Origin: Candidatus Aenigmatarchaeota archaeon
GTDB taxonomy: Archaea > Aenigmatarchaeota > Aenigmatarchaeia > GW2011-AR5
NCBI GenBank assembly: GCA_016187335.1
Contig: JACPJW010000001.1
Coordinates: forward strand, 1 to 64,000
DNA length: 64,000 nucleotides
Direction of reading: 5' to 3'
A program made the translations under genes and the position numbers. Position 1 is the first letter of the stretch; each line of letters begins with the position of its first letter. The notes beneath the pieces were generated by a model. The model was not told where the DNA came from, did no database searches, and saw nothing but the letters and a program-made list of their open reading frames with translations. Below, one piece after another: positions 56,732 to 56,883 of this stretch.

Positions 56732-56883
56732 TGAGCCCGATGGGATTCGAACCCACGACCTTCTTGGACCTATTCTTACATCACTGCAAAAACAGTCGGT
56801 CCGAAGCCGGACGCTCTATTTGCCACAACTTTTCGTTTTGATGCAACTTTTCTGAAAAGTTGCCCTGGCTAAGCTACGGGCCC
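56732..56883 (-). tRNA. tRNA-Arg (TCG) with introns at 19/20 (56863-56820, 44 nt) and 41/42 (56796-56764, 33 nt)
   Basis: Acceptor GGGCCCG/CGGGCTC-A, anticodon arm TCCGG-CT-TCG-GA-CCGGA, T arm GTGGG-TTCGAAT-CCCAT; 75-nt product; both introns have perfect 4-bp central BHB helices. Confidence 0.92.
56826..56863 (-). repeat. Dispersed palindromic element copy D, forming the tRNA-Arg D-loop intron
   Basis: 56834-56863 is 28/30 identical to 8399-8428 with one compensatory A-T to C-G pair; extra arm at 56826-56834. Confidence 0.9.

Follow-up and report, generated by a model that had tools for sequence, protein, structure and literature searches.

A D-loop intron of an aenigmarchaeal tRNA-Arg gene, built from a dispersed hairpin element and probably gained recently

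How does an intron come to interrupt a tRNA gene? The mechanism of intron insertion 'remains unclear' (PMC5829648), and of archaeal tRNA introns it has been written that 'how they arrive remains open' (bioRxiv 10.64898/2026.10.13.758758). The question is raised by a tRNA-Arg(UCG) gene in the 64,000-nucleotide stretch of DNA analysed here (the window), which comes from contig JACPJW010000001.1 of a Candidatus Aenigmatarchaeota assembly (GCA_016187335.1), and whose D-loop is interrupted by 44 nt that a first-pass annotation had taken to be made from a dispersed palindromic element. Our analysis indicates that this interruption is very probably a real, recently gained intron, and we put at roughly 0.6 the probability that it is a recently acquired, host-spliced cassette intron drawn from an evolutionarily mobile hairpin family, a family whose other members lie in rRNA introns, in tRNA trailers, between genes and, once, within a coding sequence. 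What the analysis shows is the anatomy of the insert, its predicted fold, its lineage-specific presence, a recurrent cassette with matching addresses, fast gain and loss of copies, and the presence of the splicing endonuclease EndA. We refer to the genome under study (Aenigmarchaeota; 1.01 Mb, 91% complete) as G000, to its contigs as C1 and C2, and to a relative of the same genus as G001.

The gene lies between gatB (56929-58416) and an ABC-transporter gene (54842-56638), and its minus-strand layout is GGGCCCGTAGCTTAGCCAGG (44 nt) ATAGAGCGTCCGGCTTCGGACCG (33 nt) GAAGGTCGTGGGTTCGAATCCCATCGGGCTCA. ARAGORN reports a canonical 75-nt tRNA-Arg with anticodon TCG once both inserts are deleted, and nothing after a single deletion or none; the gene span 56883-56732 follows from the need of the cloverleaf to have both inserts out. 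After splicing in silico the D-loop is AGCCAGGAUA. When long variable arms were allowed, ARAGORN took nearly any second deletion, and intron 2 was set by hand and then confirmed with ARAGORN. That intron has a relaxed bulge-helix-bulge (BHB) motif, with a GGAC:GUCC helix, a 5' bulge CG^A and a 3' bulge AA^G (^ marks an exon-intron boundary); it holds no copy of the element and is missing from the G001 orthologue. The parts of the gene are as follows.

56732..56883, minus strand: tRNA-Arg(UCG) gene, 152 nt, a cloverleaf after in-silico excision of both inserts
56883-56864, 56819-56797 and 56763-56732, minus strand: exons of tRNA-Arg(UCG), 75 nt summed
56820..56863, minus strand: intron 1, a D-loop insert of 44 nt behind G18G19 (about position 19/20)
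56764..56796, minus strand: intron 2, 33 nt, at position 41/42, relaxed BHB

Intron 1 has a simple anatomy. With its exon flanks it reads AGCCAGG^GCAACTTTT-CAG-AAAAGTTGC-ATCAAAAC-GAAAAGTTG-TGGC-AA^ATAGAGC, or, split by bulge base and paired stem, G-CAACTTTT-CAG-AAAAGTTG-C-ATCAAAAC-GAAAAGTTG-TGGC-AA, and it divides into four parts.

56843..56863, minus strand: hairpin of the dispersed element, with L arm GCAACTTTT (56863-56855), loop CAG (56854-56852) and R arm AAAAGTTGC (56851-56843)
56835..56842, minus strand: conserved single-stranded tail ATCAAAAC; ATCA/ACCA follows about 100 oriented hairpins
56826..56834, minus strand: third arm R' GAAAAGTTG, which pairs with L as the intron-side BHB helix
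56820..56825, minus strand: 4-nt address TGGC (56825-56822) followed by AA (56821-56820), with which the 3' bulge begins

The address TGGC pairs with exon GCCA (56869-56866) to give a 4-bp central helix, flanked by the bulges GG^G and AA^A of 3 nt each, and L pairs with R' over 9-10 bp on the intron side. The first-pass annotation had described this central helix and these bulges, and the letters agree with it; it had also called the motif a strict BHB. Intron 1 is indeed accepted by a strict BHB search (h2 of 9 bp, GCCA:UGGC, bulges GGG and AAA), for which displaced-partner controls gave 0, and its intron-side helix, central helix and two bulges are present. The term is slightly generous, however: the 3' bulge is flanked on the exon side by no more than 1-2 bp (A:U, U:A), unless the D-stem, at a distance of 1 and 5 unpaired bases, is taken as the exon-side helix. 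Folded in silico to its energy minimum (-55.8 kcal/mol), the 152-nt precursor retains its acceptor, D and T arms and forms L:R' together with GCC(A):(U)GGC. A local L:R triloop had moreover been proposed to compete with the L:R' fold. Such a hairpin is predicted, but in mini-substrates its energy is -8.9 kcal/mol versus -13.3 to -15.3 kcal/mol for the BHB conformer, which makes it the weaker state at equilibrium; during transcription it would be the first to form.

Where does the body of this intron come from? Its first 29 nt are the dispersed hairpin+ATCAAAA element. In the window the 29-mer finds 2 sites within 3 mismatches, against 0 in 100 shuffles, and throughout G000 about 80 distinct element loci lie within 8 mismatches, against 0-2 for a shuffled consensus; identical copies of the 29-mer occur at C2:888710-888738 and C2:903792-903820. 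The claims that the insert at 56863-56820 is built from the element, and that its similarity to the other copies is significant, are thus borne out, as is the observation that all three arms of intron 1 differ by the same C/G change from the copy that the window has at 8400-8428 (GAAAC/GTTTC). Defined structurally, as a hairpin with paired outer bases followed by an ATCA/ACCA tail, the element has 97 oriented copies in G000 (62 by a strict pattern, 0 in the reversed control). Across these 97 copies the outer two stem pairs co-vary (CA/TG 21, GA/TC 19, GC/GC 15, TA/TA 11, TG/CA 10, AG/CT 9, and others) while the inner stem and the tail are invariant. The window copies considered here, apart from that in intron 1, are these.

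8400..8428, minus strand: element copy ('copy A'), GAAACTTTTCAGAAAAGTTTCATCAAAAC
11114..11142, minus strand: element copy, TA/TA variant, between a stop codon and the next ATG
18590..18618, plus strand: element copy, CA/TG variant, with ACCAAAAG tail, 12 nt upstream of an ATG
56698..56729, minus strand: variant copy in the tRNA-Arg 3' trailer, GAAACTTTG-CTGCTC-CAAAGTTTC-ATCAAAAG, a loop variant

Copies fall into a few kinds of site. About 18, judged by flanking sequence, lie inside tRNA genes, and 4 or 5 start 1-12 nt past a tRNA 3' end, including the copy at 56729-56698, which begins 2 nt past the discriminator base of tRNA-Arg; one further copy starts 2 nt past the 16S 3' end, and a hairpin+tail directly behind tRNA 3' ends is recurrent in G000, G001 and a further genome, G024. 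Some 70 copies are intergenic, typically in the order stop codon, element, (Shine-Dalgarno) and ATG, and in either orientation relative to the neighbouring genes. Tandem head-to-tail copies, 2-3 each with a period of 27-30 nt and no spacers, occur at C2:76468-76525, C2:419612-419700, C2:803319-803401 and C1:15065-15125. A copy with the 29-mer of intron 1, at C2:888709-888738 (locus L186, open reading frame 283-1437), is read in frame, its 30 nt encoding SNFSEKLHQN in a loop of a three-domain multicopper oxidase; the nearest homologues (62% identical, the best in the wider database) have 7 residues fewer in this loop, the orthologues in relatives, at 33% identity, are too distant to set insertion boundaries, and no BHB was found around this in-frame copy.

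How many of the copies build introns? A geometry-exact BHB search of G000, which demanded a 3-nt bulge, a central helix of 4 bp (3 or more of them Watson-Crick) and flanking helices of no less than 8 bp on the intron side and 3 bp on the exon side, returned 9 element-built introns and 0 in displaced-partner controls. These are six tRNA T-loop introns, with exon/address pairs TTCG/CGAA, TTCA/TGAA and TCCA/TGGA, the tRNA-Arg D-loop intron, and one intron each in 16S (C2:242572) and 23S (C2:209924). Rfam confirms both rRNA genes: the 16S gene (C2:239678-242953, locus L188) has 3276 nt against 1478 model positions, implying roughly 1.8 kb of inserts, and the 23S gene (C2:208273-212555, locus L187) has 4283 nt against 2987, implying roughly 1.3 kb. 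Each of the two genes has, among its inserts, one or more strict BHB introns made from the element. The 29-nt module is common to D-loop, anticodon-loop and T-loop introns of G000. The stand-alone copies, by contrast, are not hidden introns, since 0 of the roughly 70 intergenic ones fit the BHB geometry.

Other roles for the dispersed copies were considered and rejected. A CRISPR repeat (21-nt hairpin plus 8-nt handle) would recur at regular distances, and no 20-mer recurs at least 3 times at 45-100 nt spacing in either contig; tandem element copies abut, without CRISPR-like spacers. A main role as promoter, with the R arm and tail resembling the TFB recognition element and TATA box, does not agree with the co-variation of the putative TATA position with arm L, and is further disfavoured by start codons 1-8 nt past the tail, by the occurrence of both orientations beside Shine-Dalgarno sequences, and by the canonical box that tRNA-Arg itself carries:

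56915..56922, minus strand: TATA-like box TTTATAAG, 32-39 nt upstream of the mature 5' end, with a putative promoter function

An upstream block TTATAA(G/A)CGCTT is common to the tRNA-Arg loci of G000 and G001. A C/D-box on the opposite strand, as read from the sequence, fits only the GA/TC + CAG variant, and its 7-nt spacer is too short.

What, then, is the unit that entered the tRNA-Arg gene? The first-pass annotation had supposed insertion of a palindrome with a few complementary bases. That interpretation is partly supported: the insert behaves as a BHB intron and is wholly element-made and lineage-specific, but what recurs is a 44-nt, three-arm cassette with its own address: one bulge base, the hairpin L-loop-R, the tail AUCAAAAC, R', a 4-nt address and AA. 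In G000 itself the tRNA-Ser(GGA) intron at 37/38 matches intron 1 at 41 of 44 bases and has the address UAAG. In two other genera, a class-II-like tRNA of G005 carries the cassette as AGCCAAG^...GTTGTGGCAA^, with exon GCCA and address UGGC, and tRNA-Leu(UAA) of G033 carries it as ACCCAAG^...GTTGTGGGAA^, with exon CCCA and address UGGG; a looser form is found in tRNA-Lys(CUU) of G001. The cassette stands before G18G19 in the class-II tRNAs and after G18G19 in tRNA-Arg, and in G005 and G033 it follows GCCARG or CCCAAG, so that tRNA-Arg and the G005 gene have in common the local exon sequence GCCA-RG and not the structural position. Because this exon sequence is shared and the address changes with the exon (GCCA/UGGC, CCCA/UGGG), the comparison speaks for the whole cassette, address included, as the mobile or selectable unit, and against a bare palindrome plus chance bases. 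In a set of 41 unique three-arm copies, drawn from 27 sources, the L:R:R' triplets at stem position 2 are A:T:T in 14, G:C:C in 9 and C:G:G in 9, and R' pairs with L at this position in 35 of 41 (shuffled R' expectation 18.6, maximum 28 in 2000 shuffles). Part of the agreement between R and R' could reflect shared descent rather than selection, R' being a direct repeat of R.

When was intron 1 acquired? The earlier suggestion to look for intron-less relatives proved fruitful. Ten relatives have a recognisable tRNA-Arg(UCG): four of these genes are intron-less (G026, of the same family, and G054, G059 and G057), that of G038 has a T-loop intron only, and those of G019, G037 and G050 are interrupted elsewhere in the D-loop, by unrelated introns. 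The G001 gene is syntenic: the gatB orthologue (78.5% amino-acid identity) lies about 60 nt upstream of it. It can be spliced in silico to tRNA-Arg(UCG); its D-loop is intact and it is without the 41/42 intron, but position 37/38 is interrupted by a 43-nt intron in which a GG/CC copy of the element sits. Since the syntenic genes of G000 and G001 differ at every intron, all introns of tRNA-Arg(UCG) have turned over within one genus, and since intron 1 is absent from G001 and from the four intron-less orthologues, a recent gain is the most parsimonious direction of change, a gain and not a loss being what we infer. An intron-less allele was not seen in contigs of 4 DNA runs from the population. 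One joint in the metagenome contigs, 56729>56834, was considered as such an allele and rejected; it joins two element copies and is a repeat artefact.

The element as a whole turns over quickly as well. By the strict motif there are 62 copies in G000, 14 in G001 (56% complete) and 0-6 in 59 other genomes of the order, and the reversed control never occurs; in the low-copy relatives about 15 of 20 inspected copies lie within tRNA introns. When 12 G001 copies were mapped onto G000, clearly only one, in a tRNA-Thr intron, had a counterpart at the same site, several sites were plainly empty, one held a tail-like remnant only, and at one the two genomes differed by exactly R+tail between the direct repeats R and R'. 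Two tRNAs have the element in a T-loop intron in G000 versus an intact T-loop and a 3' trailer element in G001.

Four kinds of observation weigh against a cassette insertion, and two of them lead to other explanations of the intron. The exon-side helix of the predicted intron 1 BHB is weak. PF01797 (Y1), PF07282 (TnpB) and PF00078 (reverse transcriptase) were not found in G000 (91% complete), and a comparison of filled with empty sites of G001 and G000 reveals no target-site duplication; mobility is therefore read from the distribution of copies. The D-loop site may be old or recurrently used, and an earlier intron body may have given way to the element, because G042, a distant relative in another family (f7), has, at the identical site AGCCUGG^...^AUAGAGC, a 43-nt intron with an unrelated body and its own matching address. 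An older intron that was later colonised or overwritten by the hairpin, in which case the element would not have given rise to this intron, also has precedent in the hairpin+tail copies nested in the outer CCCUUU...AAAGGG helix of longer introns (C2:821459, C2:256647, locus L013), and direct-repeat slippage between R and R' can expand or collapse introns, as at G001 locus L045 compared with G000. We nevertheless regard such an overwriting as quite unlikely, for it needs several independent losses, in the sister species and in the intron-less family members, the cassette accounts for all 44 nt and leaves no remnant of an older body, and the complete cassette is found in unrelated tRNAs at non-homologous D-loop positions beside the same local GCCARG.

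The fourth observation is the breadth of the element. An exact pattern (21 specified bases), searched in one genome per prokaryotic species, matched at least 118 stretches, and the 80 loci read are nearly all archaeal, with only 3 bacterial records among these 80. The archaeal ones include Methanosarcinales, ANME-1, Methanobrevibacter, Methanocaldococcus, Micrarchaeota, Woesearchaeota, Pacearchaeota, Iainarchaeota, Altiarchaeota, Thermoplasmatales and Halobacteria, and the copies among them sit in tRNA introns, tRNA trailers and intergenic spacers. In tRNA-Ala(UGC) of a Micrarchaeota genome (locus L142), judged by eye, a hairpin+tail of roughly 30 nt is essentially the whole 37/38 intron, and its tail CAAA lies opposite the anticodon-loop UUUG. 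Such exact conservation of the core over many archaeal phyla would also fit a conserved functional motif: hairpin+AUCAAAA might chiefly be a site, in RNA or single-stranded DNA, for a pan-archaeal factor that serves RNA processing or stability, times the folding of introns, or goes with a DNA structure, for instance an intrastrand triplex; its occurrence in intron 1 would be a consequence of that function. The invariance of inner stem and tail beside a co-varying outer stem agrees with this, as do the recurrent placements, either directly behind the 3' ends of tRNA and 16S genes or between stop codon and following Shine-Dalgarno/ATG, and the 16S intron copy that is kept between two genera (present in both G000 and G005) with compensatory changes, GG/CC to TA/TA, in all three arms (locus L062). 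However, congeners differ in presence and absence at otherwise alignable sites, other genera have 0-6 copies as against 62 for G000 and 14 for half of the G001 genome, some copies stand in tandem and one is in frame in the multicopper oxidase, orientation relative to flanking genes is mixed, and the element sequence was not found in Rfam or in the searchable literature, so that we hold a mainly functional site to be unlikely. It is highly improbable that the locus is no working gene at all, being a repeat-disrupted tRNA pseudogene or an assembly chimera at the repeat. It is true that default ARAGORN and Rfam, at gathering and E-value thresholds, recognised no tRNA at 56883-56732, and that short-read unitigs break within the repeat at 56834-56859. 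But two exact excisions, each at a BHB-type motif, yield a perfect 75-nt cloverleaf; the gene is the sole UCG gene detected, no second UCG anticodon arm in a tRNA context having been found genome-wide in the 91% complete G000; uninterrupted tRNA genes are hardly to be found in G000 by ARAGORN genome-wide, nearly all being similarly interrupted; and an 879-nt contig from an independent 2017 metagenome study spans 56224-57102 with zero differences, so that, the whole locus being crossed unchanged, the insert is no assembly artefact.

How would a cassette intron, the reading that we prefer, be removed? G000 encodes, at C2:410505-411113 on the minus strand, a single alpha-type EndA of 202 aa in which both domains (PF02778 and PF01974) are present. 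In the precursor, L would pair with R' over 9-10 bp and UGGC with exon GCCA, the bulges GG^G and AA^A would be presented to this host enzyme for cutting, and an RtcB-type ligase would join AGCCAGG to AUAGAGC; the unrelated 41/42 intron would be removed likewise. We infer that intron 1 is actually spliced. An rtcB reading frame is found on the minus strand at about C2:766400, with PDGH and GYGFPIG motifs, between which the frame is split by a 29-nt insert with the hairpin TCTTTTCAG-GTAT-CTGAAGAGA, unlike the element in sequence; deleting this insert would restore the frame. As for entry, the cassette most likely came into tRNA-Arg after the split from the sister species, and it would have been tolerated because the only BHB parts that it does not itself bring are four bases of the exon, which have to match its address. 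The pan-archaeal conservation of inner stem and tail, together with the co-varying outer stem, suggests that some protein recognises the folded single strand, be it RNA or single-stranded DNA.

The closest precedent, by analogy, is the 'transposition' of BHB tRNA introns in the Thermoproteales (Sugahara 2008; Fujishima 2010; summaries in PMC4090602 and in bioRxiv 10.64898/2026.10.13.758758, section 2.5). In those summaries, as here, related introns occupy different positions and tRNA types of one genome, each at a BHB, with lineage-specific gain, and the host EndA removes them, as is predicted for G000. Introns at least about 80% identical in two or more tRNA types or positions, the mark of the Thermoproteales type, are present in G000 too (tRNA-Ser(GGA), 41/44). 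Unlike in the Thermoproteales, what the introns share is a sharply bounded 29-nt hairpin+tail, joined by a third arm and an exon-matching address of 4 nt; the module also has about 70 stand-alone copies in intergenic DNA, and others behind the 3' ends of tRNA and 16S genes, within rRNA introns and within a single coding sequence; and the same core sequence is found in many archaeal phyla. The enzymes differ as well, since the host here is a DPANN archaeon in which one alpha-type subunit was found, whereas the Thermoproteales enzyme is (alpha-beta)2, and the broad-substrate endonuclease that goes with intron clusters of that type is (alpha-beta)2, epsilon2, or one with a specific loop. An L3 loop has been described for DPANN alpha4 endonucleases (PMC5829648).

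Bacterial repeats offer further points of comparison. Like repetitive extragenic palindromes and the mosaic elements made of them (REP/BIME), which go with REP-associated tyrosine transposases of the Y1/HUH type (RAYT), and like the ends of IS200/IS605 elements, the element is a palindrome of about 30 nt with a short conserved single-stranded flank and a co-varying stem, present in tens to hundreds of intergenic, often intercistronic copies. Its tail on the opposite strand is TTTTGAT, which contains TTGAT, the target of ISDra2. Dispersed near-identical copies (97, of which 3 have the same 29-mer) with presence and absence at orthologous sites are what a REP or a miniature inverted-repeat transposable element (MITE) would leave. 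The cognate transposase and the target-site duplications, on the other hand, are missing from G000 and from filled sites of G001 and G000, respectively. Neither a Y1 transposase nor TnpB was found in G001 either; Y1 genes occur in 18 of 60 relatives and in neither of the two high-copy genomes, and no element copies were found at the Y1 loci of relatives. Mobilisation of the REP/RAYT or IS200/IS605 kind, for which the TTGAT of the tail complement might speak, was rejected, G000 having no Y1_Tnp, TnpB or reverse transcriptase. To our knowledge REPs do not build introns. The in-frame copy (SNFSEKLHQN) recalls Rickettsia palindromic elements (RPE) and MITE-like repeats, small palindromes that sit in frame in protein genes; RPE belong to bacteria, exceed the element in length (about 100-150 bp) and are not known to be tied to protein-spliced introns, and the comparison here concerns one coding-sequence copy. 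Because the defining transposase and target-duplication features are missing, REP/RAYT and RPE are functional analogies only. Finally, the inserts in 16S (C2:242572) and 23S (C2:209924) resemble the archaeal rRNA mini-introns without reading frames, being short and BHB-bounded. Classical rRNA introns are thought to derive from homing-endonuclease introns; here no link to a homing endonuclease was seen, and the module is shared with tRNA introns.

Could the same process operate more widely? Tentatively, and with lower confidence than we have in the tRNA-Arg case, we propose that hairpin+tail is a pan-archaeal, non-autonomous mobile element whose intron form carries half of a splicing motif plus an address, so that it could be removed at once wherever it landed after a matching exon tetranucleotide (here GCCA-RG); introns would then be born directly at BHBs, chosen or guided by base pairing, in tRNA, in rRNA and possibly in mRNA. 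The main value of the locus is as a clean, testable case of recent intron gain. The syntenic tRNA-Arg genes of two congeners, interrupted at different places, form a before/after pair, the donor family is identifiable from identical copies elsewhere in the genome, and cassette plus 4-nt address is a rule that can be falsified at the bench. If true, the rule would explain the pile-up of introns in the D-, anticodon and T-loops of DPANN tRNAs and in rRNAs, and would provide a minimal, designable substrate for the splicing endonuclease.

Several other families of short structured repeats accompany the element at many sites of G000 (e.g. C2:81053, 716285, 350725, 236642 and 411999, and the window at ~8330-8400 on the minus strand). 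There are AGACCTTCTCAGAGGTCT hairpins, (A)AGCG-NNNN-CGGAAA is found past the tail, and leaders beginning ATAATAAGGGAAATGAG form a further family. A two-hairpin module (GGAGAAC..GTTCTCC and CGAAGAAC..GTTCTTCG) follows ATCATCTG-type tails, both in long T-loop introns and between genes. In metagenome-assembled genomes of Methanosarcinales and 'Methanobacteriota' (L102, L103, L106, L109, L110, L136-L138) a CA/TG copy lies within a larger repeat, ..CCCACCCGAAGGGCATTTCTTACTCG-element-CTG.CTTCCGACCCGAAGGGCAG.., with many occurrences. The window holds further interrupted tRNA genes, seen by ARAGORN in intron mode only and with unreliable isotypes, at 18042-18166 (plus strand), 49182-49336 (minus strand) and 50022-50270 (plus strand); within the last, metagenome contigs have alternative joints and insert sequences at 50049-50243, which hints at intron variation in the population.

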